Source: Rhizophagus irregularis
Lineage: Eukaryota
Length of the DNA stretch: 64,000 bases
Assembly: GCF_026210795.1 (NCBI RefSeq)
Contig: NC_089432.1
Location: 2,356,001 to 2,420,000 of the forward strand
Direction: 5' to 3'
Made by a program: the position numbers and the translations under genes. Positions 4,850 through 31,175 of the stretch are shown here, piece by piece (positions within the stretch are counted from its first letter, which is position 1; every line of letters starts with the position of its first letter). The notes beneath the pieces are model-generated. The model had not been told where the DNA came from, made no database searches, and saw only the letters and a program-made list of their open reading frames with translations.

Positions 4850-5089
4850 ATGGAACAAGTGGTGAAAAATACAAATTATAAAATAAAGGATATAATCAAA
4901 AATTTAGAAGATATAACAAAAGAATTAAACAGGATAAATTATAACTATAAATATAAAGCTGAAAATTTTGAAGATAGTAAAGAAAGACCATCAATATTAG
5001 AAACCCAAGAGGAAATATTACAAATAGAAGTAATATTGAGCAGGATAAATCGATTAAAACTATCAGAGCTATGTAAAAATGGGACCTAA
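4850..5089 (+). CDS. Uncharacterised small coiled-coil-like ORF inside the Gypsy element
   Basis: 79-aa ORF overlapping the start of the next ORF; no recognisable motif. Confidence 0.35.
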   Translation: MEQVVKNTNYKIKDIIKNLEDITKELNRINYNYKYKAENFEDSKERPSILETQEEILQIEVILSRINRLKLSELCKNGT

Positions 5090-5633
5090 AATAATAATTA
5101 TATGTGGAGTCAATGGTACAGGAGAAACATTTATCGTAAATAAACTCATAAAAGAATTTGAAAAAGCAGGACAAAGTGTAAGATTTAATACCTTTAAAAG
5201 GAGAAGGGAAGATAATGATAAATATAAAATACCAAAAAAGGGTATAGAATGGGAATTTAGGAAGGAAGTGGTTGAACAAATCAACAGGAGAATGGAAGAA
5301 CATGAAAATGAGGATTGGTTAATATTAGATAAAAGTCCCTATAGTGAATACTTTTATCAACAAACACCATCATTTGATAGAGGATATATATCAAAATATG
5401 AGAATCACTTACTAGAAAAGGAGATATTCAGAAACAAAAGGATAATTGATGGATCAATAGTGATATTTCTAGAAAATGACAAATGTTGGGAGAATTACAG
5501 AGGTAGAGAATACTCAAAAAAGGATCAAGGACACAAAACATCATACCCATTATTAAATGAAGAAAGATATATGGAGATGGTGAAATCATTTAAAGAATGT
5601 CAGGATATTTTACGAAGGAGAAAAATATGCTAA
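5079..5633 (+). pseudogene. Thymidylate/dNMP-kinase-like P-loop domain, frameshifted from the downstream integrase
   Basis: IIIICGVNGTGET (Walker A with K>E), WLILDKSPYSEYFYQ (DR-motif equivalent), IVIFLE strand. Confidence 0.7.
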
Positions 5634-5670
5634 TATTAAGATATCAAATAATGATACTGATTGGGAAAAA

Positions 5671-6843
5671 GTGTATAATAAAATAATAGAGTTAAACGGT
5701 AATAAATCATCGATAGAAATTAAAAGTGTCGAAATCAAAGAAAATACCAAAGTAATTGATGGTAAAAAGTACATTAAGAAGAATGGTGAAAATGTCAGAA
5801 TAATAGAAAACTTTGAAAAGATGGGAGCATTATATTTGGCTCACAGTCATGAATTATCAGCACATATGGGAATTAAAAGTACTTATGATAATTTAAAAAA
5901 TAAATATTATTGGAAAAATATGTTAAATGACGTCGAAAGATATGTAAGGACATGTGACGAATGTCAAAGAAGAGGAAAACCACAAGGGAAAAATGAATTA
6001 CACCCAATTAAAGTAGTAGAACCATGGTATCAAATTGGGATTGACTTCGTTGGACCATTGAACACGACAACAAATGGTAATAAATATATTATAGTAGCAA
6101 TGGATTACTTTACAAAATGGCCAGAAGCTAAGGCAGTAAAAGAAGCAACTGCTAAGGAAGTATCAAAATTTATTTATGAAGACATTATCTGTAGACATGG
6201 ATGTCTAATGAAGATATTGAGTGATAGGGGGAGTCATTTTAACAATGAAATGATTAAGGAATTAATGGAAAAATTTAAAATTAAATGGAATTTTTTCACA
6301 AGTTATCATCCAGAGACAAATGGATTTGTTGAAAGATTCAACTGAACATTAGGTCAAACATTAGCAAAATTATCAACCAAAGATGATTGGGATCAAAAGA
6401 TAGTACCCATATATACTATTTGCTTATAGAAATAAAAAGCATAGTTCAACAAGAATTTGACCATTTTATTTAACATATGGAAGGAATGTATGGACAATAA
6501 TGGATGAAGATATCAAAGAAATCAACCTAAGTGATAGAATAGTTGGATTATTAGAAGAACTACCAAAAATCTGACATGAAGCTAAAGAACAAATATTAAA
6601 ATCTCAAATAAAACAAAAAGAATATCATGACAGAAAAATAACTAAAGAACATATCTTTGGAATTGGAGATAAGATATTACTTTATGATAAAGCCAAAGCT
6701 CAACAATTATCTGGAAAATTAGAATCAAAATGGTTGGGACCATTTTACATCCATGAAATATTACCAAATGGAGCTTACAAAATTAAAAACATTAAAGGTG
6801 TAATCAAGAAAACACCTGTAAATGGGGAATTATTGAAGACATA
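5671..6843 (+). pseudogene. Gypsy integrase with premature stops and a frameshift
   Basis: HHCC finger (HSHELSAH...CDEC), IGIDFVGP, SDRGSHF, NGFVERFN*, then KWLGPFYIHE...VNGELLK. Confidence 0.92.
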
Positions 6844-7964: not shown

Positions 7965-8416
7965 GCTCAACCCACCTCGGCCGCGGCCTCGCAGTACCTA
8001 CATCCCCCCTCCGTGGGGTAGGGAATCCCCTATATCTGTCACCATCTGTCATTAACATCTGTCATATAATAATATACTAAAAAAGAATGAAATAAGGGAA
8101 AAGAGAGGAAAATACGATAGAATCAGAGGGGTATGACAGATATGACGGATATGACAGATGTTTCAGAAAAATCGGGAGAGGATACTCCCAGAAAAAAGTT
8201 TTGATTTTACCCCCCCAGATCTGTCATTCTGTCATAGATCTGTCATATGATCAGGATTCAGTCTATTCATCTGTCGGAAGCAGTGAGATAGCAAACCGAG
8301 TAAACAGGTAGGTTAATAGCCCCTAGAAGGTCTGTAAAGCCACAGAGAGATAACCGGGTAGAAGCGCGGATCTTTGGAAAAAATATATTCGGCAATTGAA
8401 GATTAGGTAACTATAA
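7965..8416 (+). repeat. Left terminal inverted repeat of the Maverick-like element
   Basis: Reverse complement of 30724-31175; only one mismatch noticed by eye (gatag vs gaaag). Confidence 0.96.
8394..8404 (+). promoter_or_regulatory. Putative element-specific promoter motif AATTGAAGATT (representative copy)
   Basis: Same core upstream of ORFs starting at 8427, 15888, 24978, 25558, 28082 and 30694. Confidence 0.6.
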
Positions 8417-9316: not shown

Positions 9317-10407
9317 ATGTCGCATTTAGAGAATTATTACAAATACTACAATCTCTCCGGAGTACCGGCACGAATTCTAAAAGGTGAGGAGCACTACAAC
9401 CTATATAAAAAGCCCTAAAGGAGAAGTCATCAGAGCGTCCACAAGTAGTTGTATGGAAACCAAATGCAACACATCAGGCAGATCTTGCAGAGATGCCAGT
9501 CGACCCCAAAGGATTCCACTATTTCCTCGTAGTGGTGGAAGTCGCGGGTAAACAAGTCGATGCAGAACCCCTAAAGGATAAAACTGCAAATAGGGTTCTA
9601 AACGGGTTTGTCAAAATCTACAGAAGAAATCGTATTAAGCCACCAACACACAGACTGGAGACAGATTCCGGATCAGAATTCACTAACGACCAGGTACGTG
9701 ATTTTTTCCTGAACAGCCTAGGGGTAATGATGAGGTTCGGCGAACCAGGAAGACACAAACAGCAATCATACGCTGAACGAGCCATCCAAGCAATCCAGGA
9801 ACCTCTCCTAAAACGAATGGTGGCACAGGAGTTGAAGACCGGGGTGACATCCGTGGAATGGTCAGAAGATTTCCGTGATGTAGTTAATAAAATAGATGAA
9901 ATCTGGCAGAGAAATCCCCCAGACATTCCGACAGGGTCACCCAAAGTGTCAAAAAAGACAGAACTTCTCTCTGAAGGAACACATGTCCGAGTCAAGTTAG
10001 ACGAACCTATTTCAGTACTCGGGAATAAACTCCATGGAAAATTTCGTACAGGTGACATAAGATGGAATCCCAATATCCGTGTCATCAAAAAAATGATCCT
10101 CTCACCCGAACAGCCTCCTACGTATCTTCTTGATGGACCACACGGGCGTCTAGGTGTATCCAGATGTGCGTACACCCGAAAAGAGTTGCAGATTGTTCCA
10201 GAAAATGAACATCCCCCACCTGACTCCGTGATAAGAGGGCAACCCGAAAGATTTGTACCTGAGCGGATACTCCGGCATCGCATCAGGAAGGGTCAAGACC
10301 AGTATCTAGTCAAGTGGGAACGATACCCAGATACCGAAGCCACTTGGGAACCCGCTGACCGGTTGGAGGAGGATGTCCCTGCCTTAATCCGCAAATTTTG
10401 GGAATAA
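9317..10407 (+). CDS. Retroviral-like (rve) integrase with C-terminal chromodomain; 1-nt frameshift near 9405-9420
   Basis: DDE: HQADL (upstream of the ORF-track start), ETDSGSEF, SYAERAI; chromodomain PERILRHR...YLVKWERYPDTEATWEP. Confidence 0.93.
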
Positions 10408-10421
10408 AAAATAAATATTCC

Positions 10422-11171
10422 CTATTTTTTGTCTCCTCGATTCACATCAGAAACTATCGGGATAAAAACATTCTTCTCATTACAAGTAAGGGCGATATGT
10501 TCACGTGATTCATGGACATCATAATTGTAACGTTTCAGACACGTCCGGCTCAATCCAATCTCCCTATGCTTGTAATCGCTTAAAACCGCGAGATTCTCAG
10601 TGATTACACAATCAGGGGTTAGTTTGATTGACACACCTTTTACCATGCCGAATGTCCTACCAGAACCCGGAGCGCCAGATATGTTATGTGTAATACTCTT
10701 GTCGATATCCAACCCTAATTCTTCAGCGGCTTCCCTCTGAATAAAAGACGCGTTAGCACAAGTGTCTGCTAAACACTGAATTGCTATCCCATTGACCTTC
10801 CCATCCAGCGCTAAAAGATCTTTAGTATTCTCCAAACGAGCTATGTCAATATCCATCGGGTCATCTTCCCTGATATCCTCTTCTTGTTTTTCCTCAACTA
10901 GGTCTTCCGGAATCTCCGTACTTTTACGAGCAGACTTTAATTCTTCCCGAAGAATCTCGCGGAGTAATTTTCTAAAATCTGCAGACCTTAATAAACTTAA
11001 TGAATCATTTTTGGTGACGGCTTTTATAAGTGTGGGCTTACTACTAGTAACCTTCACAGGAATCTTAATAGGAGTCATTTTAACTGATTTTTTTGGAACA
11101 GATTTAAGAAGTTTCGAGATACTTACACCCTTATCCGAGTTTACTTTTTTTTTGTACTTCGAACTGCACAA
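10422..11171 (-). CDS. Retropepsin-like aspartic protease, probably expressed by -1 frameshift from Gag
   Basis: LDGKVNGIAIQCLADTCANASFIQREAAEELGL and IGLSRTCLKRY; overlaps the gag end at A AAA AAG TAA in the -1 frame. Confidence 0.85.
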   Translation of the reverse strand: MCSSKYKKKVNSDKGVSISKLLKSVPKKSVKMTPIKIPVKVTSSKPTLIKAVTKNDSLSLLRSADFRKLLREILREELKSARKSTEIPEDLVEEKQEEDIREDDPMDIDIARLENTKDLLALDGKVNGIAIQCLADTCANASFIQREAAEELGLDIDKSITHNISGAPGSGRTFGMVKGVSIKLTPDCVITENLAVLSDYKHREIGLSRTCLKRYNYDVHESREHIALTCNEKNVFIPIVSDVNRGDKK

Positions 11172-12636
11172 ATCCGAAAACCACCTTCCTCATCGGGAAC
11201 AATTTTCAAGTCATCAAAACTCGCGGTATTAGTATCAATATCCATAGCATCATCATTAAGATCGAGGTTTCTCATTGCTCGGGCTAATTCCAGATCATCG
11301 CGTCTATCTTTAGCCTTCTGAAGTCTCTTTGGAAATCTTTTAGACGTCTCATATCCCATAATAAGATCAATAACATGTTGATCATCCTCACTAGTCCACT
11401 CAGGAGCATCAGGGTCACCAGGGTCATCACCAAAATCATGATCTACATAACCATCATCCCAATCAGGATCCTGATGATCCTGAACAACGCGTGGCCGTGG
11501 CTTTGGCCGAACAGGTTTAATCTGTTGTCTATAGACCGGTGGTTTACGAACTGGCTTAGATGCTTGTAATTGTTTAAATTGTGCCTGGAAATTCTTGGTA
11601 AGTTCCTCGGCCTGCGCCTTGAGCAATTCTTGTAATCGTTCTTGAGTAATAACGTCTGTCGACCTTTGTATTACAGCACCTTCGTGTGGAGTCACGGGAT
11701 GAGTATAGCCAGCCAATTCCTCTTTTTTAGCCTTTTCAATACCCTGGCGCCTTTGTAATCCATAGAACATTTCACCCTTTCGTCGCTCAAGATCACTCAA
11801 TCTATCGATTAATATATTAAGAGGCGCCGCCCCGATTCTGGAAGCTTCAATAACGTTTTCCGGCAAAAGTCCTCTATAGAACTGGTCAGTAACCATAATT
11901 CGATTATATCCTACAATATCCCCAGCCCTCTCAACTCGCTTATAGTAAGATCGAACAGGTTCACCTTGTTCCTGGTAAAGATTACTAAATCGTATCTGAA
12001 GTCTTTCTTCCACGACGGTTGGAAAATTTGTACGCATATGCATAAATGCTTGATCCAGGAGAATCCCCTGTAAGACTATTGGTTGATTCTGGACAGCAGC
12101 ATTAAATGGACCTCCATGATTTCCCAACCCATTAACGGGTTGATGAGTAGGACGTCCGCCCGCACGCCTCCACTGCTCTTCAACTTTAAAATTCGTTCTA
12201 ACGATATCAGCGCGTGATGGGAAAAATGCATCTCCAACGGTTACCGCCGCATTACCTGCAACCCTTGAATATACATCAGCATCAGACCCGGGTAAGTAAG
12301 TACCAACATGTAATCCATTAGCAACCTCAGGAACAGCTAAAGCTCTGAACGCTCGGCGAGTAGCACCGGCTCCACCATTTGCAGCAGCCACTAACCGAAT
12401 ATTCGAGAGTTCCCAATTTTTTCCAGTAAGTTCTGCATCAAACCACCTCGCCGCTTCATCTCTCATACAGCTACGAAGAACCCCATCACTCGCACCCGAC
12501 CAGGAGGCGCACCGGCATCGTCCAATGGATCAATACCAACGGTATTAATATACCCTAAAAAGTTATCAATAAAAAGATTAAGATCTTCATCTTCCCGACC
12601 ATGAAATATGGGGGCAGCTATACCAACGGCAGCCAT
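11141..12636 (-). CDS. gag: Retrotransposon Gag (capsid)-like protein, 1-nt frameshift at the G-run 12481-12484
   Basis: PIFHGREDEDLNLFI, MRDEAARWF, LYQEQGEPVRSYYKRV (MHR-like), QFYRGL. Confidence 0.8.
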
Positions 12637-13322
12637 ATCGTATTTTGTGGATGGTTGAGAGGAGGTGGAGGAAGGTTCAATTGTCTGATCCGAAACCATT
12701 GTACTTGGATACGCAGAGCGGCTATTTGTTGGAAAAGTCGATTCCTAAGACGTCCCAATGTCCGAATTCCAAAAAGAACCCGATTATTGGCATATACAAG
12801 CCGATTTCGTGCCACATCACGCTCGCCTATAGCTCTATTACGTTCACCTATAGCTCTATTACGTTCTCCTCTCATAAGATTATATTGCTGCTGAAGACGA
12901 CGATTAGTCGTCCGCATACCACCAAACTCACGTTCCAATTCAGCCAAATTAGCTTCTAAACTAGTAATAGTATCTTGTACGTTATTTAGCTCATCTTGTG
13001 TAAGACCTAACAAACCCGTTTGAACCTCGAGTTCATCTTGTAATTCATCACGTTCTTTTCGAGATCGATCGCGTTCCGCTTTTAATATATCGCGTTCTTC
13101 GTATGTTTCTCTACAGCGATGAATTAATAAATTAAGAGCATGTTTAAGACGATGGTTTGCATTTTGTACATCTCGATTAACAACCATGCGATCACTGACA
13201 GTTAAAAAATCTGTTAGATCCTTAATTACCGCAACTAATGGTATATTATTCATATCACGCAAATCCCTAGGAGGCGGTCCAGTAGGCTCTGAAGGAGTAT
13301 AAATTGCAATTGGTGTCGACAT
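12618..13322 (-). CDS. Coiled-coil protein, probably the N-terminal part of the Gag polyprotein
   Basis: Heptad-rich with a 21-nt repeat (RNRAIGE); its Pro-rich end overlaps the gag start in another frame. Confidence 0.7.
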   Translation of the reverse strand: MSTPIAIYTPSEPTGPPPRDLRDMNNIPLVAVIKDLTDFLTVSDRMVVNRDVQNANHRLKHALNLLIHRCRETYEERDILKAERDRSRKERDELQDELEVQTGLLGLTQDELNNVQDTITSLEANLAELEREFGGMRTTNRRLQQQYNLMRGERNRAIGERNRAIGERDVARNRLVYANNRVLFGIRTLGRLRNRLFQQIAALRIQVQWFRIRQLNLPPPPLNHPQNTIWLPLV

Positions 13323-13353: not shown

Positions 13354-14577
13354 ATGGATCTTTATGTATACAATTTGGACGAGTACACGACCGACTCGAG
13401 ACAGGGTAATGAGTTTGCCCCATCATGGCCTTTCCGTCTTGCCGTAGCAGGAAGTTCTGACTCGGGTAAGACAACTATGATTATTAATTTGTTAATGGGA
13501 GACAAGAAGGCAAAGGAGGATGGCGAAAGGTACATATTATGTGATGCGGTAATTCTAGTTGGCAGATACCTCGATGAACCGAAGTGGGCAGTCGTACGTG
13601 ATTTTTTCAAAGAAGAAGAAATTCCGTTTACCGCAGTATCCCATAGTGAGATTCCAAATGTTAAGGACTTCAACTCCACCCAGGCTACTGTGGTAATCTT
13701 CGAGGATTTGATGGATGCGCCTAAAAAAACCCAGGATCTCATCACTGGATTTTTTACACACGGGCGTCACAAAAATATCTCGTGTATCTATGTGGCCCAA
13801 AGATTCTTTACCATTCCCAAGGCTATTCGTGAAAATGTGAATTATATTTCCCTACATGGAGGTCACGGAAGTTTGACCGATACTAAGAGGATCATCCGCC
13901 AGTATACAGAAGAATCGGAGTCACTAGCTCCAGTAATCGATGACCTTACTCTACAACGCGAATTTATAGTATTTGATCTTAGAAGATCCAAGAGCGATCC
14001 GTTATCTATTCGGGTTAGATGGGATACTAGTCTCAGTTCGATCACCGATCAATCTCAGTTCGATCCTAGTTCGATCTCAGTTCAATCCCCGTTCGATCCG
14101 AGTTTGAACCCAGTTCGATCAAAGTTCAATCCGAGTTTGAACCCAGTTCGATCAAAGTTTAGTTCCTATGGCCAGAAAGCCGTAGCTGAAGCAAAAAAGT
14201 CCTCCCAGCTAATCGAGTTTGCTCGGGAATATCCATCGCCTAAAGAGAGAAAACACCTTCTCGTATCTGGTGTTATAGCTAAGAACGCAGATACCTGGAT
14301 TAAGTACGTCTTTCGGGAAGCCTACGGACTATCTGGTAAAACCCTGGGATCAGACTTCCAAAACTTCTTAGCGAAAGTACGGGATAGGACCACGAAGACT
14401 GAAATTCCAAAACCTGAGACCGTAAAGGAGTTATTCTCCCGATATGAAGTCCTGAAGTCTAGTCACCCTTTGGATAATAAAAAATTAATAGAAGGCATCG
14501 GGGTCCTTTTACAGATCTTTTCTAAGGGTCATATGGACCGTCGAGCATTACGAGTAGGGATCAATAGTATTTTGTAA
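13354..14577 (+). CDS. A32/FtsK-like DNA packaging ATPase with C-terminal extension
   Basis: FRLAVAGSSDSGKTT (Walker A), VVIFEDL (Walker B), FTHGRHKNISCIYVAQ, IPKAIREN. Confidence 0.93.
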   Translation: MDLYVYNLDEYTTDSRQGNEFAPSWPFRLAVAGSSDSGKTTMIINLLMGDKKAKEDGERYILCDAVILVGRYLDEPKWAVVRDFFKEEEIPFTAVSHSEIPNVKDFNSTQATVVIFEDLMDAPKKTQDLITGFFTHGRHKNISCIYVAQRFFTIPKAIRENVNYISLHGGHGSLTDTKRIIRQYTEESESLAPVIDDLTLQREFIVFDLRRSKSDPLSIRVRWDTSLSSITDQSQFDPSSISVQSPFDPSLNPVRSKFNPSLNPVRSKFSSYGQKAVAEAKKSSQLIEFAREYPSPKERKHLLVSGVIAKNADTWIKYVFREAYGLSGKTLGSDFQNFLAKVRDRTTKTEIPKPETVKELFSRYEVLKSSHPLDNKKLIEGIGVLLQIFSKGHMDRRALRVGINSIL

Positions 14578-15888: not shown

Positions 15889-16242
15889 GTCTTTTTTCTG
15901 TACGTGTCTACATACCTAATTGTTATCTTCAATTTACAATAACCAAGTGACATCGTCATCAGTCCTTGTCAAGGCAAATATGGCATAGTAGCCTTTATCT
16001 TTATTAAAATTATTTAACGAACTTACAAAAAAATAAAATAAAATTTTCAAAGTACAAAAAAGAAAAATAAAATTAACTAAAAACAAAACTATATAGTCTC
16101 CAAAACAGTAATAAAGCTATAAAATTAATTCAAAAAGGAAAAAATCGCATAACACTAAAACTATCCTGATCCCCCGCCTAGATATATTCCAACCTAAGAA
16201 GAAGCAACTATGCAAGCAAACTAACGAACAATGCGCCCATTA

Positions 16243-19200
16243 TTAAAATCGACACACCACCCTGCTAAAGCTGTTAGTAAGTTGCACCGTTAGACGACCC
16301 ATAAAACCCGAATAGTGATTAAACCAAGGCAAACCATATTTCATCGAGTTCTTTAAATAATCAACGTCGGAGTCACGTGCGGCGTCGGAAAGGGTCGGAG
16401 GAGGTAAAGTTGAGAAAGGTAAGTACGTAGACTTTGGCAAATTTGAAGGCCGAGAAAGTTTAAGTTTTTGAGTGATGTTCATCGCATTTTCCTATTTAGA
16501 TTTGTCATAGGAACGCGGTAGCCAAATTCGTTTTCTGATCTTTTGGATAAAGTGATTGTGGATGGCAGAGATAACCTTCATCGCAGAATTACGTGGGATA
16601 GAAAGTTCTTCAAAAATTTCAACAAAGGATTTCGGAAGGCAGCCACGGACAAGGCTATATGAAGTCCAATTTGAAGAAGAAAAGGACCAACAAGGAAGAG
16701 ATTTAAATTTGTTAATAAGTAAAGAGGGATCTTTCTTAACGAGATCACCAGCTTCTTGAAGTTTGTTGATAAAATGATGTTGGTAGGAGAGGAGAATCTG
16801 TTCCATAGCAATTCGTCTACATTTGCACATAAAAAGGTGCATGAAATCTTCCTTGGAGTCGAGACATGAACGACATGATAAAATGTCGATATACAAGTCC
16901 GGGCGAATTCTTTTAAGATGTTCCAAAGTAGGCAAATCTTCCAAAAAGAGTTTGAATTTGAAGGTGCGATGAGAGGAAGCATGAGCTCGAGTAAAAGAGG
17001 CATCATGTTGAGGTTCAGAATTGAGCGAAAACCAGGTAAGATCCCAATCAATCACGAAATCTGAAGTAAAAGATAAATCAATGGTGAAATTAAAACGTGA
17101 TAAACGCGTTAGTCTATGCATCCACAGCATTTGCGAATATTGCTTGAATAGGCGTCGTGGGTTGGATTCACATAAAATATCATCATATTTTAATAAGAAA
17201 TCGTGAGGAGATACTTGATCCAAATCAGAAAGAAGAACTGCTGAAGAGGAAGTATGCGCAGAATTGGCCAATGAGTCCGCGTAGTCATTGTAGAAATTAC
17301 CAGAGTGACCTTTCACTTTAACAGCCGTGACAGATAAAGATTTAGAGAAAATGAGACTTTCAATAATAGCCCAAAGTTCAAAATTGGTGGTCTTGTAATA
17401 GAGCCTACTATTGGAATAAGAAAAGGTAGCACATAGACGAAGACCATCTATGGCAGATTGAGAGTCAGTATAAATAGTGACCGTTGAGAAGGGAGGAGTG
17501 ACTGTAAGAGCAGCATGTATAGCGGCAATTTCAGCTCTTGTAGAGGAAGGCCAGTTATGAATAATTCCATGAGCGTAAGCAGCGATAGATTGGAAAAAAC
17601 CAGCGCCATCGAGGACTTGAACCCAAGACCAACCCATAGAAACCTCAGGAGTGCCAAGGTTAATTAAAGAACCATCAGTATAAAAACAATAATGGTTATT
17701 AGGAGGAGTCGCTAACGGTGAGGCAGCAAAAGCAAGAGAAGCAGCCGAGCCCAAAGAGGAAGAAAGAGAAGGAGTAGGGAGAGTAACCATCTCTACTTGT
17801 GAAAAATTAGGTTGAGTGTCCAAACGACCATAATATGATCTTACAGTTTCATCAAGGTCCACCCAAGTGAAAGGAGAAGTAATAGTAGTGGTATCATGTC
17901 TAATACGCTCCTGCGTTGTCGGGAGAATTAAAGATCTAAGAGGAGAAAGTTTTGGGATGATACATAAAGGGGTAACATCTGTAGGATTACTTTTAGTATG
18001 GGTAACCGGTATATGTTTAGAACAACCAGGACAAGGAGTGAGCGTGATAACATCATTAGGTCGAGTCACACAATCAGAAGTCCAATGGACAATCTTGCAA
18101 GAATATTGTTGTTTGCTGAGCTGTTTTCCAAATAAAGGGGAACCATCTTCGTCCAAAGACACGATCCATTTCATGGATTTTCTAGAGGAACCAAAGGCAG
18201 GAACCAAATCAACGCCTGAAGGAACGGCTTCGGAAGAGAATTGATCCAAGAGTAGAGAATTGGAATTTGGAACGGTGACATTTTGATGAATGTCATTGAA
18301 CCACTTATGCGGGAGGACTCGATGACCTTTCCTACTTGATAAGCTGGAAAGATAAACATTCCAAGTGATCATATGGGTTCCTTGAGGCGTGATAAATTGA
18401 GATAGGTAATAGAGTTGCAGACTTCTTAGACGTCGGAAATAAGAGATAAAAATCTTTGGGGTCATTATTTCAAATAAAGGCGTATGACCATCGGATACAG
18501 TAAGGTTAGGCAAAGTTGAAAGTGGAGAACATGACAACTTGAAAGGAGTGGCAGTCAGGAGAGCAATAGTGCAAGCGATATAATCCTGCTTAAAAGCAAA
18601 AAGTTTAGACCATATAGTCCAATCTTTAACTAACAACGGAGAAATAGGAATCAAAAAAGAAAATTGAATTAAACGTAATCTATAGAAAAATAAATTTTTC
18701 ATAAAAGAAGAAGAAGAATTAGCTAATAAAAATAAATTAGTTAAATGTGTTTGTGATTGGTGAAAAAATAAATTAATCAATCCCAAGCCTTGAGATAAAA
18801 ACAAAATAGAATCTGGGAGTACACGTGAAAAATTGGCCTTATGTTTAACCATGGAACGAATACTACTGGTTGCCGAGGCACATTCAGATTCGGAGAGGTG
18901 AGTGACTTGCATGCGATATTCCAATTTTGGGATAAGGACGGTGTTGTGCAAATAGACTACTTGTTTAGCAGATAATTTGGCAGGACGAACGGTAGCAGCG
19001 AAAGAGTTGCATTCTCTAGCAACTTGCTTTTTAACAAAATCGCGAGAACCAGCGACATTGAACCAGACGCCCAGGAAGCGGAAAGAGCTATTCATGGAGA
19101 TGGGCACAATAGAAATGGAAGGAACTTTGTTCAATCCAGATAAATGTAAGTCAAACACGACAGGAGAAGGTGAAGAAACTGAAGTGGAAGGCAACGAATT

Positions 19201-21864
19201 AGTAATTAAAACATATTTGTTGTGATTAGCGGAAGTATTATTAATTTGATAAAATTCTTCCGTAATAGAGAGCATCGATTCCATTCCGGATTTGGATGAT
19301 GAAATTAAAGTGGAATCATCCATAAAGACCAAGTTATTGATACGTAATCCATCAGAATTTGTCATAGCCAAGGGATTAGATAATAAAGAAGCATGAAGCG
19401 TATACGGATCCATCATTTCATTCTTAAGAACAGTTAACAAAGGGTCTATATATATAACCCAAAGTAAGGGAGAGATAACTTCGCCTTGATCTATACCAAT
19501 TCGAACACGGTAAGAAGGAGTAGTTCCATGAGCAGTAAAAACGCGATTGGAGCGATTCATGAAAAGGGATAAAATAAATGTTGTAGCAGAAGCAGGAAGT
19601 TTAATGCGTTCAAGAGCGAAATGCAACATCTTGAGATCAACCGAGTCGAAAGCCTTCGAAATATCTTGCGAAAGGATCCAAAGCGGCGATTTGTTGACAT
19701 GAGCATCATGGATAATAGATTCAAGAACGACAATAGGGTCGCGACAAGAACCACCAGGCAGACCAGCGAAGTTTCCTCCTCTGAGCACTTCATTTGAAGC
19801 CAAAATGGAAGCGAGACGATTGTAAAAAAGTTTAACCAAAGATTTCCTAATTACTTCAAGTAAAGTAATAGGTCTTGTGTTCTTGAGTTGACATTTCCAT
19901 TCGTGAGGTTTAGGGATAGGGAAAACCATAGCTTGACGCCATAAATCAGGAATATCTGCAGTACGAAGACATGATTGGACCAGGATTAAGATCAAAGCGG
20001 AAGTGTTAGGGCCCAGATGCTTAAGCATCTCATAAGTGATCATAGAGGGACCAGGAGCTTTGTCATTAGGCATAGAAGAGACCGTAGACAACCATTCGTC
20101 CAGAGTAGGAGGATCCAATAAAGAATTATAAATGGAGGAATCCACATCGTCCATAGGGCGATAAGCGGAAGACCATCTTTCCGGTAAAGCAGAAATGTTA
20201 ATAGGAGGAGTCGATTTGATAGGTACGGAATTTTGGAAATGGTTGATAACAGCGTTATCAATGTCGAGTGGGTCCGTTAAAAGTTTGGGATGCGTAGGGT
20301 AATCAATAAAGACACGATCCAAAGTGATACAGCGTCGAGTTCTTGAAAGAGCAGAATTAATAAAGGAAGAAATATCAGTTTCAAAATTGTTATCCCGATC
20401 GTCCAATTTGGCACGAATGGAAGAGTCTTGAAAGTCTTTTTCTTTGAGAAGAAGGAAACCATGGAGGGTATTGGAGATAGACTTTAAAGATTCCAATAAA
20501 CATTTAAAATCGTCTTGCCTACATGTGGATAAAGAAGTAGGTAAAATAGGGGGAGAAGGAATAACCTTCTTATAAAGATGAAGAATCTTTTGAAGTCGAA
20601 TGAAATGAGCGGACCAAGTACGTTCATATCTATTATAATATGTGGAAGGATATTTTCGCAATAAACGTATCGAATGCAGAAGACGGCTGAGGAAACGATA
20701 ATGTTGAGTTAAAGCTTCCAAATCCTTAGGCATCGTAGGTGTAAATTGGTTGCCAACCGTGACAGACGGAAGAGAGGCATTAGCAGCTTTCACGATACGG
20801 GAATGTAAATATTCACATTGTTGATTGATGTGCCATGTTGAAAAGGTGGAAGGAGAAACGTTGCATAAGGAGTCAGTACAAGTAGAAAAGGATTCCCATT
20901 GCTGAGTAGTAACGGAATCAAATTTAAAAATGCGACGAGTCTGTCGTTGAAGTTGTTTAGCACGAGCAACCTTGATAGACGCAACCAAGAGTGAATCATC
21001 AAAATACGTGATGATAGGATTGTGGTCCGAAGAGCAGGTGTCTTGGGCGTCAAAGATATAAGAAGTGAGAGCGAAGCCTTTTAGCATTGGGCAAGACCAA
21101 ACATAATCTATACGAGTAACTTGGTCATCACGGTGAAAGGTGCCTAAGGAGTCAGAAGCGTTAACAGGAATAGTTTCTTCATAGCCATGAGATAAAAGAT
21201 GATGTAGCAAACGATATGATCGTTGCGAAGCGGTAGCAGGGCGATTAAAATAAATAGGGTAATAGGTATCTAGGTGCATATTAAAATCACCACAAATGGC
21301 ATGATAAAAATTTTGTTGTTTAGTTTGCACCAAAAGTTGTAAAAGAAGATCAATAGTTTCTGATCGTAATTTAGAATCAGAAATAGGGGGAATATAGATC
21401 ACAAAAATACGAAATTTAACGTTGCCTTTAAAATAAAGGTCAACAGATAAAATTCGTGAGGAATGTGAAACAAAATCTTGTACATGGGAAGCAAGGGATT
21501 TTTCAATGAAAAGGGAAACGCCACCAGTAGAATTGACCTGTTTGGTTTTATCTATATCAGATGAAAAGACAGTATAATTAGGGAGGCGTTTAGATAAGAA
21601 ATGAATTCGTTTAGGGGTTAAATGGGTATCAACGATACCACCAAAGGTAATATGTTTAAGATTAAAAAAGTTTGAGATTTGTTCAAATTTAATTTGACTA
21701 TTATGGCGAAGACCATTAACATTAAAAGATGAAATATTAAAGGAATTAGGGATAGGGGAAGAATTTGGGGTAGTAAATAAAGATTCATGTTCAGAAAAGA
21801 TATAAGTATCTACGGGGTTGGGTGGGTTTCGAACAAATGTATCATAATTAAAATTGTCTGACAT
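16243..21864 (-). CDS. LINE ORF2: APE endonuclease - RT - RNase H - Zn finger; one in-frame TAG at 16492-16494
   Basis: SFNVNGL, GDFN, RIDY, SDHNP; QDISKAFDSV, GIDQGEVISP, FMDD; FYTDGS, RAEI, TDSQ, KVKGHSG; CRSC...HLFMC; frame continues to 16243. Confidence 0.95.
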
Positions 21865-21911
21865 TAGAGCACAATGATAATAAAGTACGGGGAAAAAAGG
21901 TGAGAAGTCAG

Positions 21912-24032
21912 TTATTGCGAAGGAGCTGAAGCTCGATCGGAGGGAGAACCACCAAGAGAAGCAATGAAACCTTGAATGGAACCAGTGAGCGATTGTAAAG
22001 TATCTTTAATCGCTTTTTGATCTTGAATAACTGAGTTCAATTCGTCTTGCGGGGAAGGGTTAGAAGTAGAAGCGGGAGCAGAGTGCAGAGCCTTGTTGGA
22101 AATAGATATAGGGGAAGGGGATTTCATAGAACCAGAAGATGATGAGGGAGCATTGGGATGTTGGATTAAAATGCCAGTGATTTCGGGAGGATCTTCTTCC
22201 ATTCGATCAGGTTCAGAATTAATGATAGGTACAGAGGGAGGACTAATGCCTAAATGAGCTTCTATAGCAGAAAGCCGTTGGTTGTTTAGTTCAAGGGAGG
22301 AAATGCGGGATTCCACACGAGCAACATCTTGTTGAAGGTTCTTTAGAACATTAAGAATGTTAAGAGCGGCCTCAAGGGCACTAGAAGAATTCGAATCAGA
22401 GAGCGGAGCACGAGCATTGGACGAAAAAGAAACAGATCTATCTTTGCCTTTTCGGGTAATCGAAGGTGCGCGTCCATGGGCAGGTGAACCAGAAGAGGGG
22501 GGTTTGTTATTATTATTGTTATTACCATTAGTATTAGAACTATTGGAATTGGAATTAGAACGGTGAGCAGAAGCAGAACGATCCCGAGATTTAGATCGAG
22601 AACGAGAACGTGAATTATTGCGCGGCGTTCTTTGTTGGACGGGCTTTTGGCCAATATTGAAACGTTCTTTAAGAGCAGCCACAGGGTCACGTGTACGTGA
22701 GCGACCACGGCGTTGATTAAGCGGGCAAGAGGTAGGAGCACAACCAAGTTTACCACAACGATGGCAAAGAGCTTTCGAATCATTGGATGAACCCCACCGA
22801 AGAGTACGACCTTGAAAACCAATAGTTTGCTCCATAGCGGCATCCATTGTTTCCTGCGAGTTGAAGGTGACATAAGCCCAAGGTTTAGGTTTATAAGAAT
22901 TCAGGGAAAGGGGAATGTTAATTGCTTTTGCTCCATGTTCTTTAACCAGAGGAGCGAGATGAATATCTTTAGTATTAGCGGGAAGTCCAGAGAGAACAGC
23001 CACGAACGCTCTACGAGCGGCTTTTTGATCTAAGGAGTAGTGGCACGGGGTAACACGCAAGCAGGTAGAAAAGCAGTAAACTGCCCATTGAGTAGTGAAA
23101 CGGGAAATGGCATCGGCATGATCATAGACAATGCGGGCTTGTTGCATCTTAGCACCTTTCCTCGAGTAAAGATGGATGGTAAGGAGGTTGCCAAACTTCT
23201 TGAAATAGGATTGGAGTTGCGGTTTAGTAATGAAGAACGGGATATCTGTTACTTGAATTGCACGGAGGTCTTCATCGGATCGGAGCTGTTTGGGATCGTA
23301 CAGGTGGAATTGAAGGTCCGGAAAGTCGGAATGTGTGCTACCAACACACAAGTCACGAGCTTCCGCAGTATGAAAATGTATGATAAGACGTTTAGCGTCC
23401 CCTGAGCCAGTCATACGTGCACGACCGGTATATGATTCATACGTTTCTAAAAATAAGTTGTTAACGGCTTCTATAATTGCCTTATTGGTTTTAAGTTTCT
23501 CAAGAGTTTGGGGAGCGGAGTTGGGCGCAGCCGCAGCCAGGAAATCTTGACGATTAATGGTAATGGTAGGGGAGGGATCAACAGCCTGATCGGGCGATGT
23601 ACCATCATTAACGTCCATATTAGGGGACGCGTTAGGGGATGGGTTATTTTCTTTGTTTCGAGGTGCATGAATAGACGCGTTAGCTCCAGAAGACGCGTCT
23701 TGGCCAGGCGCAATAGGCGCAGCAGAATTTTTCGGGGTAGAAGCTTGAGTATTTTCTTGGGCAGTGCTGCGGGAATTATTTTGTTGAGGAATAGCGGTCG
23801 AAGTTGAACCAACTAAACCACCGTCAGCCGGCGCGTCGGCAACGAAATCTTCATAGTCTTCATCCATAGAGTCTTTTGTAAGTATACGGGAACGTTTTTG
23901 GGAATTATTATCACTATCGGAACCAGAGTTATCAGAGAGTTGTTTTTTATTATTTTTCTTTTCTTGACGAGCAGCCTTATTACTGTTAGGGTTATAGCTG
24001 CCGCCACCTCTTCTAGCAAGGTTTCTAGACAT
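21912..24032 (-). CDS. LINE ORF1 (RRM-like domains, Zn knuckle, coiled coil)
   Basis: IQVTDIPF...FKKFG, WAYVTF, CHRCGKLGCAPTSC, SR-rich tract. Confidence 0.9.
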   Translation of the reverse strand: MSRNLARRGGGSYNPNSNKAARQEKKNNKKQLSDNSGSDSDNNSQKRSRILTKDSMDEDYEDFVADAPADGGLVGSTSTAIPQQNNSRSTAQENTQASTPKNSAAPIAPGQDASSGANASIHAPRNKENNPSPNASPNMDVNDGTSPDQAVDPSPTITINRQDFLAAAAPNSAPQTLEKLKTNKAIIEAVNNLFLETYESYTGRARMTGSGDAKRLIIHFHTAEARDLCVGSTHSDFPDLQFHLYDPKQLRSDEDLRAIQVTDIPFFITKPQLQSYFKKFGNLLTIHLYSRKGAKMQQARIVYDHADAISRFTTQWAVYCFSTCLRVTPCHYSLDQKAARRAFVAVLSGLPANTKDIHLAPLVKEHGAKAINIPLSLNSYKPKPWAYVTFNSQETMDAAMEQTIGFQGRTLRWGSSNDSKALCHRCGKLGCAPTSCPLNQRRGRSRTRDPVAALKERFNIGQKPVQQRTPRNNSRSRSRSKSRDRSASAHRSNSNSNSSNTNGNNNNNNKPPSSGSPAHGRAPSITRKGKDRSVSFSSNARAPLSDSNSSSALEAALNILNVLKNLQQDVARVESRISSLELNNQRLSAIEAHLGISPPSVPIINSEPDRMEEDPPEITGILIQHPNAPSSSSGSMKSPSPISISNKALHSAPASTSNPSPQDELNSVIQDQKAIKDTLQSLTGSIQGFIASLGGSPSDRASAPSQ

Positions 24033-24615
24033 GTTAGAAGGTATGAGTTGGGTAAAATATAAGAGTTGTTAGTACGAAGATATAAAATTTTCTTTCCGAA
24101 AATTTTTGGTTAATAGATCAGCGGTAAGAGATCTTATCAGTTCTTTCAGTCCTTGTCAAAAAAATGCGAGGATGCCTGATGATGAGGTTACATGGTCATC
24201 AGTCCTTGTCGCAAAACACGAGGATACCTGATGAATAAGTTATTGGATTATTGGCCTAAAAAGCATTCATGGAAAAACTATGGATTATATTACAGAAAAT
24301 GTGAACGGAGTTCATGTCACGTGATACCCTGAACAAATGTGTAGAGTGTCACGTGATTTCATGCGGTACGTAGATCATTTCCTTTTTGGGCGATACCCGT
24401 TCCACAAAAAATCGATTTTGGTAAAAATGCGTTTGGAACCTTGTGTAACATAAATTTCCTTTTTCGGTAATTCGGGATTACGCGGTAATGCCGGCCGGAT
24501 CTAAAAAATATGACTCTGCAGGGTAATTCCTACGAAAGTCAAGTACAAAATGCTTACTCCTGTTGAGTCCATTCATACCACTCCCAGTCCCCAAGGATCG
24601 CCTCCCCATCTTTGT

Positions 24616-26228: not shown

Positions 26229-28082
26229 TCATGTCCAGATAACCTTGTTCGCATTTTTCACATGGCAGTATCCCGCGGTTTCAAACTTGAAAGTCTTTAG
26301 AGTCGTATCTGCATTCTCTGAACAAGTGAAAAGCGCGGGGCTATCTGGCTGTTCTTCTAAAATAAATCCGTCTGTATGGATACGTCGTACTTTATCCTTG
26401 TATGGTTGAATTGCCTCAGATGTGATTTTGCGACCACGTGCTAATAAGAATGGGGCGATCCTGGGATACTCACCTTTGAAGGGATTACCCGGGTTTGTAA
26501 ACTGGAATCGCCACTGGTCAGATCCTACTGGTATGATAGAGTCAAGTGTATGGCCCTCTGGAAATGTAAATGGGTCTGTTTGATCTGCGGTGAGTGTCTT
26601 GTAATTACGCTTCCTCTGGCATAATGCTCCCCATAATGTGTTGAGGACTCGCTTTGCCACGTGGCCAGCTACGCCACCCTGGTTTTTAATTTTGAAGAGG
26701 AAGTGTACATACTCACCGAATATTACAGTTCCAGGGATTCTCGCTTCTCTATCATATATCAATGCATTTGGCTTCCCATCCTGTATTAACTGTATATTGA
26801 GACCAAGTTTTTTTGCTCGTTGTAAGTCGATGAATGTATAGATTCCCCTTTTATTCTGTCGGAAGAGAATATTATTCCCACTTATTTTGGCACGGAATAA
26901 TCCATACAAGGCATAACCCCTGTGGTCGACAAAGTCATTAAGTGTCTGGAATTTACCCCGTCTGATTGGAAAGTTCACGTTTGATTGTTGGATACTCGGG
27001 TATAAACTTGTTGCGTCATACTGTCTTCCATAGCCCTTCCACTCGTTATCTGCCCAGATTAATCCTCCCATCATTGCATCACTTAACCACTCCGCTTCTA
27101 TCGGGTCAAGAGGATCATTGGCTGGAATTCCTACACTTAATCGTTCGAATAACCAGAGAGCCGTTCTTTTGTAAGACCAGTTATGGTATGATAAGTCGAT
27201 TCCTAAACCGAACTTCTTTGTCTCCTGTAGAAAGGAATTCCGCTCCTCGTGGATTCTCTGATATGCTTCTTCAAGAGTTTCATATACTCCAGTCTTACGG
27301 TTTTTCTCGACGGGGATGAAAGAACTTTTGGAATTCTTAGTTTTTTGAAACTGCGCAATTGTGCAAGACTTAACTGTTTTGCCGTTGTATATTGTGACTA
27401 CATTATTGGTCCCATCTTCATGGTATACAATGGGTAAATTACGCTTTTTATCTATTTTACTGGGGTGGAGTCTTCCAGGATTTAACGTGAGGGAGTAATG
27501 GCCTTCTGATAGGATGAGAGTCGCACGTCTATCGGACTTACTCTTAGAGATTCGGGTAATGTCCCCCACAATATTAATTGCGAGACTTCCTGCGAGTTGT
27601 TCAACCTTGTCCATGCATGAAACTGGGATGGGAGCATCGCGATTGAGACCTAATGCCTTTTTGATATACTCGGGCTTTTCGATTGACTTTGGCATTTTAG
27701 AGAATGTGCCGTAAATATTTTTTAGGCATTCATACAGGCAATCATTTAGCTCCCCATTGCATCCTCCTGCGGCCGGTGGACTATCTCTTGCATAAATTAT
27801 GAATCGTTCAAAATAATCAGGGTCTGCGTCATCCGGTAGTTGTGCTTCATCATAATGGTCTAATAGTGAAAAGAGGCTGGCTGGTTGGTTTCCTGATGTC
27901 CATCCACCGGGTTTCCAGTTTTCATAGGGAAGTAGGATCTGGAACTTTCTATCTGGAAATCGCGTCTGGAGAGTCTGACCGAGTCTGGCGATAGCTCCTC
28001 TGGAAAAGCGAGCACCGGAATACTGAAGTTCCTTGATGTCAGGTCGTGTTGGTAAAGTGCGGGCAATTCTTGAGTATTGCAT
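26229..28082 (-). CDS. Compact protein-primed-type family B DNA polymerase
   Basis: MMGG, YDATSLYPS (motif A), KRVLNTLWGAL (motif B), IHTDGF (motif C); N-terminal NDCLYECL...EGHY. Confidence 0.88.
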   Translation of the reverse strand: MQYSRIARTLPTRPDIKELQYSGARFSRGAIARLGQTLQTRFPDRKFQILLPYENWKPGGWTSGNQPASLFSLLDHYDEAQLPDDADPDYFERFIIYARDSPPAAGGCNGELNDCLYECLKNIYGTFSKMPKSIEKPEYIKKALGLNRDAPIPVSCMDKVEQLAGSLAINIVGDITRISKSKSDRRATLILSEGHYSLTLNPGRLHPSKIDKKRNLPIVYHEDGTNNVVTIYNGKTVKSCTIAQFQKTKNSKSSFIPVEKNRKTGVYETLEEAYQRIHEERNSFLQETKKFGLGIDLSYHNWSYKRTALWLFERLSVGIPANDPLDPIEAEWLSDAMMGGLIWADNEWKGYGRQYDATSLYPSIQQSNVNFPIRRGKFQTLNDFVDHRGYALYGLFRAKISGNNILFRQNKRGIYTFIDLQRAKKLGLNIQLIQDGKPNALIYDREARIPGTVIFGEYVHFLFKIKNQGGVAGHVAKRVLNTLWGALCQRKRNYKTLTADQTDPFTFPEGHTLDSIIPVGSDQWRFQFTNPGNPFKGEYPRIAPFLLARGRKITSEAIQPYKDKVRRIHTDGFILEEQPDSPALFTCSENADTTLKTFKFETAGYCHVKNANKVIWT

Positions 28083-28168: not shown

Positions 28169-30694
28169 TTACAATATGTCGTTGATAGCGCCCTCAGTAT
28201 CCTCTTCGTCCCAGTCATCGATGATTCCATTGGCGGCCTCCCATTCACGTTCCATATCAGTTTTTGGACGTTCCTCGGGGATCTCTCGCGCTTTACCCTT
28301 ATCTGCCCTCATAGTTTCATAACCAGAGGGGGTGGGAATAATCTCGGCATTACGATTCTCCTTGTATATTCTTATTAAATCTGCGAGTTCTTTACGGCTA
28401 GGTATTTTAGGTAAGTATCCATTATATTCAATCCAGTCCTTGAAGCGGTCTACTACCTCCATAAGGTAGTACTGGTACTCGTCCTCAATACGCGTTGTGG
28501 GACATTCCTCTATTTCAAACGCGAGTATTTCCCAGTCATATTCGTCTGACGCGTCTTGGTACTTGGCCCATAATTCCTTACCTGTATTGTAGAGATCATT
28601 GAAGACCTGGTCCTTTAAATTTTTAACCCATGGTTTGCGATCCCATCGGTGTCTTTCTTGCCAAGCCCAGTGCGCTCGAGTGCCTTCCTTTGGTTCAGGA
28701 TCCCGGTCAACTTCTGGTTCTGTGTCGGGTTCTGGGATAAATTGCTCTTCAGAAGCCGGTTCTGGGTCAGGCTTAGTGACAGATGCAGAAGATTCTGCGG
28801 GATACTCGGGTTGTTGTTCAGCAGCTGAGTTCACAGTTGTAAAATCTGAGTCTGATAATAAGTCGTCTAAGACGTCGTAGTTATCTGGCTCGGGGGCAGA
28901 CGGTTTTTCAGGAACTGGGTTTGCAGTTGTAGAATCCGAGTCTGATAACAAGTCATCTAAGACGTCGTAGTCATCTAGCTTGGGGGCAGACGGTTTTTCT
29001 TCCCTTAACTCTTGTAAACGTTCTTTTAAGTGGTCAGGCTTGGGTGGAAGCGGTGGAGGAGTTTTGCGAATTACAGGTGCGGGTTTTTCTTCAACGGGTT
29101 CGGGTTTTTCCTCTGTGGGTTCGGGTTTTTTCTCAGCGGATTTTTCCTCAGCGGGTTCGGATTTTTCTTGTACGTCTTGTGAATTGTTAGCTGGATTATA
29201 TATATTTGCCAAGAACTTATCCAAGGCATTGGGGTCTGATGCGGGTTTCTTAGAAGTCTCTATATCAATTCCTTCTATATCTATCTCGTCTGTTTCGTGG
29301 ATCCAGTTTTTGCCGAGGTATTTATTGTAAAGATCCTCCCTGGATATGCTATATACTCGGGTTAACTTTTTATTTATATAAGTCCGATTACTATTTATAC
29401 TCAACTCATTTGATAGGATTCTAGAAGCGTTTATCTTTGATAAGGGTGTAATGCCACGAGTTTCGCAATATGAAGTATATACCCTATAAAATTCTTGAAC
29501 AGGTAGGTCGGTCATATAATTTTTCACTATGAGGTATGTGTCCTTTATAAATTGGAATAGCGGTGGAAGAGTTGAGATGATATGTTCCTGTTTGGATGTT
29601 GTCATGGGTGGCGGATTTCCATTGAAGTCTGAGTAAGTATTCGCAATGGCTCTCAAATAAGCATAGAATGCCTCACTGGCGCCTGGGTATTTCATAGCGT
29701 CACCGAGTTTTTTGAAGTAGTTGAGGTCTCCCTTGCGGGATGGTGACACATCCAAGAACACTGTGCGCCTATCATCATTATCCACTCTGAGAGCATTTTC
29801 GTTGGTTAGGACGATAGTAGACATAAAGTTTTTATAATGTGTTGGTGTCTTGTATTTTTCATGGATTTCCATTATGTCACTCGTTACCTTATCCTTTAAA
29901 GAGCGATACAGATTATTCCACTGGCTTTTTTCCGTGGGCATTTCCTCGAGAAGAAGAAGAATCTTACCCTGTAATTGCCCATTGAAACTTCCACGAATCG
30001 TCTGAGGATCGCTGGTCTTATAAACGAGTTGAGTGCCTAGGACGCTGCGCTGAATGAAATCTGTTATAATGCCTTTGCCCCAACCCTGTCCAGATTTCAG
30101 GTAAAGGATCGAGTACATCTTCCTTCCAGCAGATACACCGGCCAACCACTTGATGATATACTCAGTGAGATTCCAATCACCCGAACACCAGATATCCTGA
30201 ATGTGAGAGAAGATAAATTTAACCGCGAGGTGAATTGTAGACTCAAAGGTGGATATCGGACGCAAGACGTGGAGGAATCCCGGGAAGATATTTAGATAGA
30301 GTTGGCCGGTTAAGGATCTGAAGATTCGCTGTTTATGGGGATCACAGGTTGCATTACATACATCGGTATTCTCGACCATAAACCATTTGTAGATGTTGAA
30401 CTCGGTCTTTTGAGAGGGTCCTTGTTCAGGTTGTGTGTAGAATACCTTCATAATTGGACGGATAAGTTTACCAATATTTTTGTCAATAACGTGTTTCAAA
30501 CTTTTACTATCCGGGTCCCACCAGAAAACCCCATGAGGATCTGCACAGGGAATGAAATAACTGCAAAGATACCTCTTGGCTTGATCGAGGTCACTCATAC
30601 TCTTTGCAGCGACAATAAGCCGTTTAAGCTCATTGATACTAAAGGCTTTCGTTTGTTCACCGAATTTGGGGATAACTTGAGCTTGAGTGGTCAT
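28169..30694 (-). CDS. SF3 (D5-like) helicase with winged-helix and acidic/Pro-rich C-terminal region
   Basis: LKSGQGWGKG (Walker A), LLLLEEM (Walker B), IVLTN (motif C), DDRR; internal duplication EKPSAPxxDxYDVLDDLLSDSD. Confidence 0.9.
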   Translation of the reverse strand: MTTQAQVIPKFGEQTKAFSINELKRLIVAAKSMSDLDQAKRYLCSYFIPCADPHGVFWWDPDSKSLKHVIDKNIGKLIRPIMKVFYTQPEQGPSQKTEFNIYKWFMVENTDVCNATCDPHKQRIFRSLTGQLYLNIFPGFLHVLRPISTFESTIHLAVKFIFSHIQDIWCSGDWNLTEYIIKWLAGVSAGRKMYSILYLKSGQGWGKGIITDFIQRSVLGTQLVYKTSDPQTIRGSFNGQLQGKILLLLEEMPTEKSQWNNLYRSLKDKVTSDIMEIHEKYKTPTHYKNFMSTIVLTNENALRVDNDDRRTVFLDVSPSRKGDLNYFKKLGDAMKYPGASEAFYAYLRAIANTYSDFNGNPPPMTTSKQEHIISTLPPLFQFIKDTYLIVKNYMTDLPVQEFYRVYTSYCETRGITPLSKINASRILSNELSINSNRTYINKKLTRVYSISREDLYNKYLGKNWIHETDEIDIEGIDIETSKKPASDPNALDKFLANIYNPANNSQDVQEKSEPAEEKSAEKKPEPTEEKPEPVEEKPAPVIRKTPPPLPPKPDHLKERLQELREEKPSAPKLDDYDVLDDLLSDSDSTTANPVPEKPSAPEPDNYDVLDDLLSDSDFTTVNSAAEQQPEYPAESSASVTKPDPEPASEEQFIPEPDTEPEVDRDPEPKEGTRAHWAWQERHRWDRKPWVKNLKDQVFNDLYNTGKELWAKYQDASDEYDWEILAFEIEECPTTRIEDEYQYYLMEVVDRFKDWIEYNGYLPKIPSRKELADLIRIYKENRNAEIIPTPSGYETMRADKGKAREIPEERPKTDMEREWEAANGIIDDWDEEDTEGAINDIL

Positions 30695-30723: not shown

Positions 30724-31175
30724 TTATAGTTACCTAATCTTCAATTGCCGAATATATTTTTTCCAAAGATCCGCGCTTCTACCCGGTTATCTCTCTGTGG
30801 CTTTACAGACCTTCTAGGGGCTATTAACCTACCTGTTTACTCGGTTTGCTATCTCACTGCTTCCGACAGATGAATAGACTGAATCCTGATCATATGACAG
30901 ATCTATGACAGAATGACAGATCTGGGGGGGTAAAATCAAAACTTTTTTCTGGGAGTATCCTCTCCCGATTTTTCTGAAACATCTGTCATATCCGTCATAT
31001 CTGTCATACCCCTCTGATTCTTTCGTATTTTCCTCTCTTTTCCCTTATTTCATTCTTTTTTAGTATATTATTATATGACAGATGTTAATGACAGATGGTG
31101 ACAGATATAGGGGATTCCCTACCCCACGGAGGGGGGATGTAGGTACTGCGAGGCCGCGGCCGAGGTGGGTTGAGC
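30724..31175 (-). repeat. Right terminal inverted repeat of the Maverick-like element (tip probably extends to ~31190)
   Basis: Reverse complement of 7965-8416, followed by gtagcgagacacact(ac). Confidence 0.96.

Follow-up and report, generated by a model that had tools for sequence, protein, structure and literature searches.

A probable gag-pro recoding site on a bare run of nine adenines in a Maverick-like DNA element of Rhizophagus irregularis

In a Maverick-like DNA element of the root-symbiotic fungus Rhizophagus irregularis, a Gag-like open reading frame (ORF) and a retropepsin-like protease meet at a run of nine adenines (A9), and comparison with relatives indicates that this stimulator-free, length-based gag-pro frameshift in a DNA element is a real, conserved recoding junction. 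We analysed a stretch of 64,000 nucleotides (the window; contig NC_089432.1, positions 2,356,001 to 2,420,000), whose minus strand at 11153-11141 consists of A9-G-TAA, read as ACA AAA AAA AAG TAA, and closes the Gag-like ORF. The protease lies in the -1 frame relative to Gag; its frame is open from 11189 to 10422 and overlaps Gag by 46 nt. A sequence-only reading of the window had proposed this arrangement, in which a protease follows the Gag ORF in the -1 frame and the overlap lacks an ATG, and we found it in the window and throughout the 23 junctions compared (the window and 22 relatives), none of which has an ATG in the overlap. It is very probable that the junction is a functional recoding site that acts by some slippage mechanism. 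The features of the junction and of the element are collected in Table 1.

Table 1. Features of the Gag-protease junction and of the element that carries it (positions are those of the window).
Feature	Position	Strand	Basis or remark
Left terminal inverted repeat, 452 nt	7965..8416		100% complementary to 30724-31175
rve-chromodomain integrase, converging on the protease; 5' part lost to a frame break near 9410	9493..10407	+	same arrangement in 11 of 26 loci
Retropepsin-like aspartic protease, from the PMDID motif	10422..10856	-	Pfam Asp_protease_2, E 3e-8, above cut-off
Protease active site DTCA (motif LADTCA)	10766-10755	-	motif census
Transframe linker, ~95 codons, only the -1 frame open	10857..11143	-	constraint over 18 loci
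Gag stop TAA, directly 3' of the run	11141..11143	-	stop at most one codon from the run in 21/23 junctions
G after the A9 run	11144	-	sequence
A9 run, probable recoding site	11145..11153	-	gap-free in contigs of three runs; 9-11 A's in 22/22 spanning relatives
In-frame heptamers in the A9 run region	A_AAA_AAA 11153-11147; A_AAA_AAG 11150-11144	-	overlapping
Gag, predicted two-lobed retroviral-type capsid with helical acidic tail, without zinc knuckle; interrupted near 12480 by the loss of one base	11141..12636	-	start, break and fold analyses
Coiled-coil ORF	12618..13322	-	overlaps Gag start
A32-type (FtsK/HerA) packaging ATPase	13354..14577	+	Pfam Pox_A32, E 1e-10; upstream in L008 and L014
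Nested non-LTR retrotransposon, separate insertion, ends approximate	15970..24145	-	ORF1 with RRM; APE-RT-RNase H
Protein-primed-type family B DNA polymerase	26229..28082	-	Pfam DNA_pol_B_2, 26.6 bits, cut-off 25.8
D5-like primase-helicase	28169..30694	-	Pfam DUF5906 and Pox_D5; PHROGs primase
Right terminal inverted repeat, 452 nt	30724..31175		perfect partner of the left repeat

Each of the runs X1, X15 and X7, which come from three studies, has a single contig that crosses the junction (about 10810-11279) with one substitution and no gaps, and no indel at 11145-11153 is listed for any of the four runs compared. At 12480, where the window Gag is broken, the same runs show a single additional base, so that one-base homopolymer differences are detectable by this comparison of run contigs. 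The sequence-only reading had raised the concern that a homopolymer error might hide a continuous Gag-Pro frame; the gap-free contigs of three runs and the -1 relation in 22/22 relatives dispose of it, and the window junction is confirmed as real and not an assembly error. The joints listed in run contigs, at 10993-11104 (X2) and 10985-11093 (X2 and X15), do not span the A run. Among X17-X20, the A run is covered by X17 alone; X18 contigs end at 11135 and restart at 11218. The contig-level data of X17, which is RNA only by guess, show +1 at 42.8 of 897.7 depth, and -1 at 43.6 and -2 at 87.1 of 955.7. Similar deletions occur at other short runs in X17, so these indels look like read error, and no splice joint is listed for this run.

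Sister copies were drawn from run contigs, protein databases and metagenomes. A metagenome scan with the protease alignment returned 26 loci, 22 of which span the junction; two were not counted because they start within the protease (L023 and L024), and two because their upstream DNA has neither a Gag match nor an A9 run (L025 and L026). Relative to the window, the 22 spanning loci are 40-97% identical in protease and, in the 16 with a tblastn match, 27-82% identical in Gag. For the six without a tblastn match to the window Gag (L004, L007, L013, L017, L020 and L021), the Gag frame was taken from the open frame and from tail similarity; L004 and L021 were scored +1 by script, and their phase was reset by hand to -1 from the alignment. 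In L021 an in-frame TGA immediately precedes the run; this locus looks like a decayed copy, as do L005, L016, L018 and L020.

All 22 spanning loci have an A-run at the end of Gag (17 A9, four A10 and one A11), with the protease at -1 in every one. Conservation of the stop and of the run across copies, a check named in the sequence-only reading, was borne out, with the stop at most one codon from the run in 21/23 junctions. At 70% identity over the 150 nt 3' of the run, the window and the 22 loci fall into 15 lineages. Runs of at least nine A's number zero in the 32,141 nt flanking the junctions, compared with 23/23 at the junctions themselves, an excess over chance. More distant Gags (24-59% identical), of which 21 were chosen out of 117 matches as those reaching the C-terminus, have KK(K/R) within the last six residues in all 21 aligned. 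Near-identical proteins occur in Rhizophagus irregularis and relatives in R. clarus, Paraglomus occultum and Entrophospora candida. Our scans found no relatives among viral contigs. As judged from these alignments, the Gag-protease junction is kept by selection.

The sequence below the run is under coding constraint. In 18 loci, 82-117 open codons of linker precede the protease core, compared with stops in other frames at 9.2% per codon (one per ~11 codons), and dN/dS over seven pairs is 0.40 for the linker and 0.12 for the protease core. Upstream of the run, the -1 frame is closed after 5-20 codons, and downstream it is open for 225-263 codons in intact loci. From this constraint we infer that translation of the downstream frame sets in at the run.

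Because the active site reads DTCA rather than DTGA, the sequence-only reading had considered the activity of the protease uncertain. The motif itself stands, but it does not appear to be a sign of decay: D(T/S)CA is found in 107 of 111 further relatives, so that the Gly of D(T/S)G is replaced by Cys family-wide, and together with the low dN/dS of the core this argues that the protease is not decayed and largely removes the doubt. A comparison of the protease with the PDB by sequence gave no match at E 0.01. A DD(A/P)MDID-like motif occurs twice on the minus strand, at approximately 11243-11229 in the Gag tail and 10862-10845, 30 residues before the catalytic Asp. These motifs, present in many relatives, flank the transframe linker and are candidate protease cleavage sites.

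The sequence-only reading had assigned the slip to A_AAA_AAG. This heptamer is indeed present and in frame in the window, but it does not hold up as the conserved signal, since it occurs in 13/23 junctions and in-frame A_AAA_AAA in 23/23. The other junctions end in AAA AAA AGR-stop (seven) or AAA AAA AAA-stop (one), or have the stop several codons on (two). AAA is invariant at both core Lys codons, although it accounts for 173 of the 281 Lys codons of Gag upstream; across the ORFs of the element, in-frame slippery heptamers amount to 21 in 4,180 codons. A9 runs are found in two registers, NCA AAA AAA AAG (13 junctions) and CAA AAA AAA AGR (five junctions), the second of which needs three changes on the protease tree. 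As AGR makes up 59% of the Arg codons in these Gags, the register change is suggestive but not proof. On the alignments, the conserved signal is a run of at least nine A's that holds A_AAA_AAA, and not A_AAA_AAG. A_AAA_AAG has been described as the favoured site in E. coli, and A_AAA_AAC as among the best for mammalian ribosomes (PMC5009743).

A stimulator downstream of the run, the other element that the sequence-only reading had looked to, was not found by folding. Local 3' structure in the window gave z-scores from +0.54 to -0.35, and over the 23 junctions the mean z was +0.22, with one of the 23 below -2. There were no compensatory base pairs 3' of the run in the six close relatives compared for covariation, and a pseudoknot scan of the window, made without a null model, returned weak stems of 4-6 bp only. 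A 'shifty stop' as a general stimulator was ruled out for the seven AGR-stop junctions, in which the last tRNA would be unable to re-pair at -1; the adjacent stop is thus probably not a general stimulator. Measured against canonical eukaryotic -1 programmed ribosomal frameshifting, the junction has the overlapping startless -1 ORF and the in-frame X_XXY_YYZ but not the 3' structure; measured against a programmed transcriptional slippage site, it has a homopolymer of at least nine A/T that is kept by selection. With no stimulator found, the site is not a canonical heptamer-plus-structure signal, and polymerase slippage seriously rivals slippage on the ribosome.

We lean towards the ribosome as the main slipping machine. 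A small share of ribosomes would slip back one base on A9, by a tandem slip or by sliding of two Lys-tRNAs on AAA AAA, and the extra A's would supply more than one register and in this way replace an RNA stimulator. At a slip rate of presumably a few percent at most, the products would be a majority of Gag and a minority of Gag-linker-protease fusion. The fusion could then co-assemble into Gag shells, where the protease would dimerise and trim Gag, with the two MDID-like motifs as candidate sites. More speculatively, the Gag shell might enclose the linear DNA of the element, in place of the jelly-roll capsid of other Mavericks. Sliding of ribosomes along consecutive AAA codons has been documented (PMC4363877, PMC4552401). 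However, measurable A-track effects in human cells start at about 11 A's in 12 (PMC4552401), which counts against ribosomal slip on A9. It also counts against it that a tandem slip needs seven A's, yet at least nine are present in 23/23 junctions, and that the register changed while the run stayed at nine, which polymerase slippage fits at least as well. A basic C-terminal tail selected at the protein level could explain part of the run.

Programmed transcriptional slippage is possible, although we hold it to be rather unlikely as the main mechanism. RNA polymerase II (Pol II) would add one A on A9, and the resulting A10 mRNAs would be translated normally into the Gag-protease fusion. This would account for a floor of exactly nine A's in both codon registers and for a site at which no RNA stimulator was found and the adjacent stop probably does not act as a general one. 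Nine is close to the 9-10 bp of the RNA:DNA hybrid and to the threshold of nine A/T of bacterial polymerase (PMC5009743), but that threshold is bacterial, whereas the host polymerase here is fungal Pol II. Indels made by Pol II in yeast become exponentially more frequent as the tract lengthens, with insertions exceeding deletions (PMC5650487). On the other hand, transcriptional slippage would need neither the in-frame heptamer that is present in all 23 junctions nor a stop within one codon of the run. Ribosomal and Pol II slippage would yield the same protein, and they may act together.

The remaining explanations are, even when taken together, unlikely. Splicing, by which public gene models join Gag to the protease, is highly improbable. 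Such models skip the junction residues in 125 of 126 annotated R. irregularis proteins that contain the Gag end and the protease, which implies predicted introns, and in the window a GTAAGT lies 27 nt from the start of the run. However, near-identical copies received many different joints in these models, which is how gene finders behave where the frame changes; there is no conserved donor, any match being present in 6/23 junctions and at differing places; and the linker that would be skipped is under coding constraint, while the A run would need no keeping.

Equally improbable is a protease made alone from the PMDID methionine, by way of a short transcript or an internal start, with the overlap as a relic. 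Every locus whose active site could be parsed does have a Met ~30-35 residues ahead of the catalytic Asp, but the 82-117 codons above this Met are open in -1 up to the run (chance ~1e-4 per locus) and constrained at a dN/dS of 0.40, and a nearer ATG at 11078 is not conserved. Slightly less probable still is switching at the DNA level, in which replication slippage would generate some in-frame A10 copies that supply protease in trans in a multinucleate fungus with many copies of the element. The element is indeed multi-copy and one protein, P0101, reads straight through, but in-frame DNA junctions were found in 0/23, including the five with A10-A11, and P0101 is one read-through in 126 proteins and may be an assembly error. 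Finally, a homopolymer error or inactivating mutation limited to the window copy was a reasonable worry because one base breaks the frame of this copy at two other places, both in short homopolymers (Gag near 12480 and integrase near 9410, each either assembly error or decay), but at the junction it is refuted by the contigs and relatives described above, and its probability is negligible.

The suggestion in the sequence-only reading that Gag is a structural protein agrees with predicted models, which have a retroviral capsid fold. The window Gag itself has no Pfam match, and 15 of 44 Gag relatives match Pfam Retrotrans_gag. The best PDB match of the Gag profile is the C-lobe of the PEG10 capsid (CA), with E 0.0027. 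For the model of relative P0156 (49% identical, pLDDT 91), CA domains of retroviruses or retrotransposons fill the 37 top rows of 50 listed chains; the best has Z 9.7 and an rmsd of 5.5 over 170 aligned residues covering both lobes, and the first unrelated chain has Z 4.7. The model of the near-identical P0138 has capsid domains in the top 16 rows. Foldseek supports the CA fold weakly, with E 0.013, and a first model gave CA matches at E over 4. No zinc knuckle is present in Gag. The CA N-lobe has an insertion of ~120 residues (window ~12200-12440, minus strand), which consists of strands and short helices in a high-confidence model and would, if the model is right, face the surface or the lumen of the shell. 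More distant relatives (P0220, P0243 and P0177) combine coiled coil, Gag and protease in one annotated chain, and P0220 and P0243 carry a DTGS motif; relatives of this type may mark the donor lineage.

The element measures 23.2 kb, or ~15 kb without the nested LINE. Its family B polymerase and rve integrase, together with long terminal inverted repeats (TIRs) and a packaging ATPase, are those of a Maverick/Polinton. The rve match (27.4 bits) stays below the cut-off of 32.6 on a truncated ORF, while the chromodomain has E 7e-18. An LTR retrotransposon or retrovirus does not fit, as the protease ends at 10422 facing a convergent integrase and the ends of the element are inverted repeats; the 26 loci gave no RT match. 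We call it Maverick-like because no 6-bp target-site duplication is evident at the window copy, whose flanks are ATTATA and GTAGCG, and because neither a jelly-roll capsid nor an adenovirus-type cysteine protease was matched in Pfam or PHROGs (leftover ORFs are <200 aa and were searched by sequence alone).

Several further features of the region were observed. The coiled-coil ORF, relative to which Gag is at -1, overlaps the Gag ATG (12618-12636, minus strand) and ends exactly six codons later. The six-codon overlap is present in all four loci that hold both ORFs (the window, L008, L014 and L018) and contains no slippery run; it possibly reflects termination-reinitiation coupling, or else a by-product of Gag codons. 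An 11-nt tandem repeat in nine copies (14035-14155) lies within the A32 ATPase ORF. The nested LINE (~8 kb) is apparently intact, with a 706-aa ORF1, a 1790-aa APE-RT-RNase H and a flanking duplication of 14-16 nt. Outside the element lie an integrase fragment with an H2C2 finger and a P-loop ORF (5058-6345), pieces of a hAT transposase (34045-36180) and a Sel1-repeat gene (56593-57660).

The junction resembles retroviral gag-pro of the MMTV type and PEG10 in its CA-fold Gag, its aspartic protease at -1, its short overlap without an ATG and its in-frame A-rich heptamer; both MMTV gag-pro and PEG10 use -1 shifts (PMC5009743). Those systems have a pseudoknot stimulator, whereas none was found for the Rhizophagus element. 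It further differs from them in that its signal is 9-11 A's, in that the fusion ends after the protease, in the lack of RT and zinc knuckle, and in being carried by DNA. The Thermus thermophilus dnaX gene, in which transcriptional slippage on a stimulator-free run of nine gives two products from one gene (PMC5009743), is a second likeness; it is a cellular gene read by a bacterial polymerase, in contrast to the Rhizophagus site, which lies in a fungal nuclear element and includes an in-frame ribosomal heptamer.

Mavericks are known from Glomerales, in which they are expanded (PMC11952901; see also PMC8647823). The element is like the Maverick/Polinton of Rhizophagus irregularis (Glomus intraradices), whose published consensus was compared by description only, in its TIRs, rve-chromodomain integrase, protein-primed polymerase, A32 ATPase and length of ~15 kb. 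Unlike an expected Maverick, it has a retroviral-type Gag and a retropepsin in place of a jelly-roll capsid and an adenoviral cysteine protease. For the G. intraradices Polinton, a major capsid protein was reported as not found (PMC7805220), and the accessible parts of PMC5751038 and PMC11296320 contained no Gag information. In Fig. 5 of PMC8502044, a MELD-related element labelled Matrix/Capsid/NC/Pro stands among elements with adintovirus-like PolB; the legend mentions similarity to retroviral Gag and retropepsin as well as a D5-like helicase, and the text names a Rhizophagus PolB. Compared by legend and text, that element may belong to the same family, and the Gag-protease content of such elements may have been noticed there before. 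The available text of that paper describes no gag-pro recoding; its sole 'frameshift' concerns a degraded human relic. In the literature searched, which did not extend to the original Maverick papers and most subscription journals, we found no description of a gag-pro recoding site in a Maverick.

A tentative picture is that Glomeromycotan Mavericks are chimeric: a linear dsDNA element with a protein-primed polymerase would be housed in a shell of retroviral-type Gag, a captured retropepsin would mature this shell, and a bare A9 run would set the ratio of Gag to protease. That run could be the first programmed Pol II slippage site of a eukaryotic nuclear element. For recoding without a stimulator in a eukaryote, the site offers a small, naturally occurring system in which ribosome and Pol II can be tested against each other. 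Public R. irregularis gene models that bridge the junction, 125 of the 126 examined, are probably wrong there. The main weight of the finding lies in what it implies for the capsid. A presumably dose-setting recoding site has been kept in ~15 lineages, and because such ratios matter for particle-building proteins, it provides good indirect evidence for a working retroviral-type capsid module in a dsDNA Maverick-like element. If this capsid works, a dsDNA replication and packaging module would have been joined to a retroviral shell.
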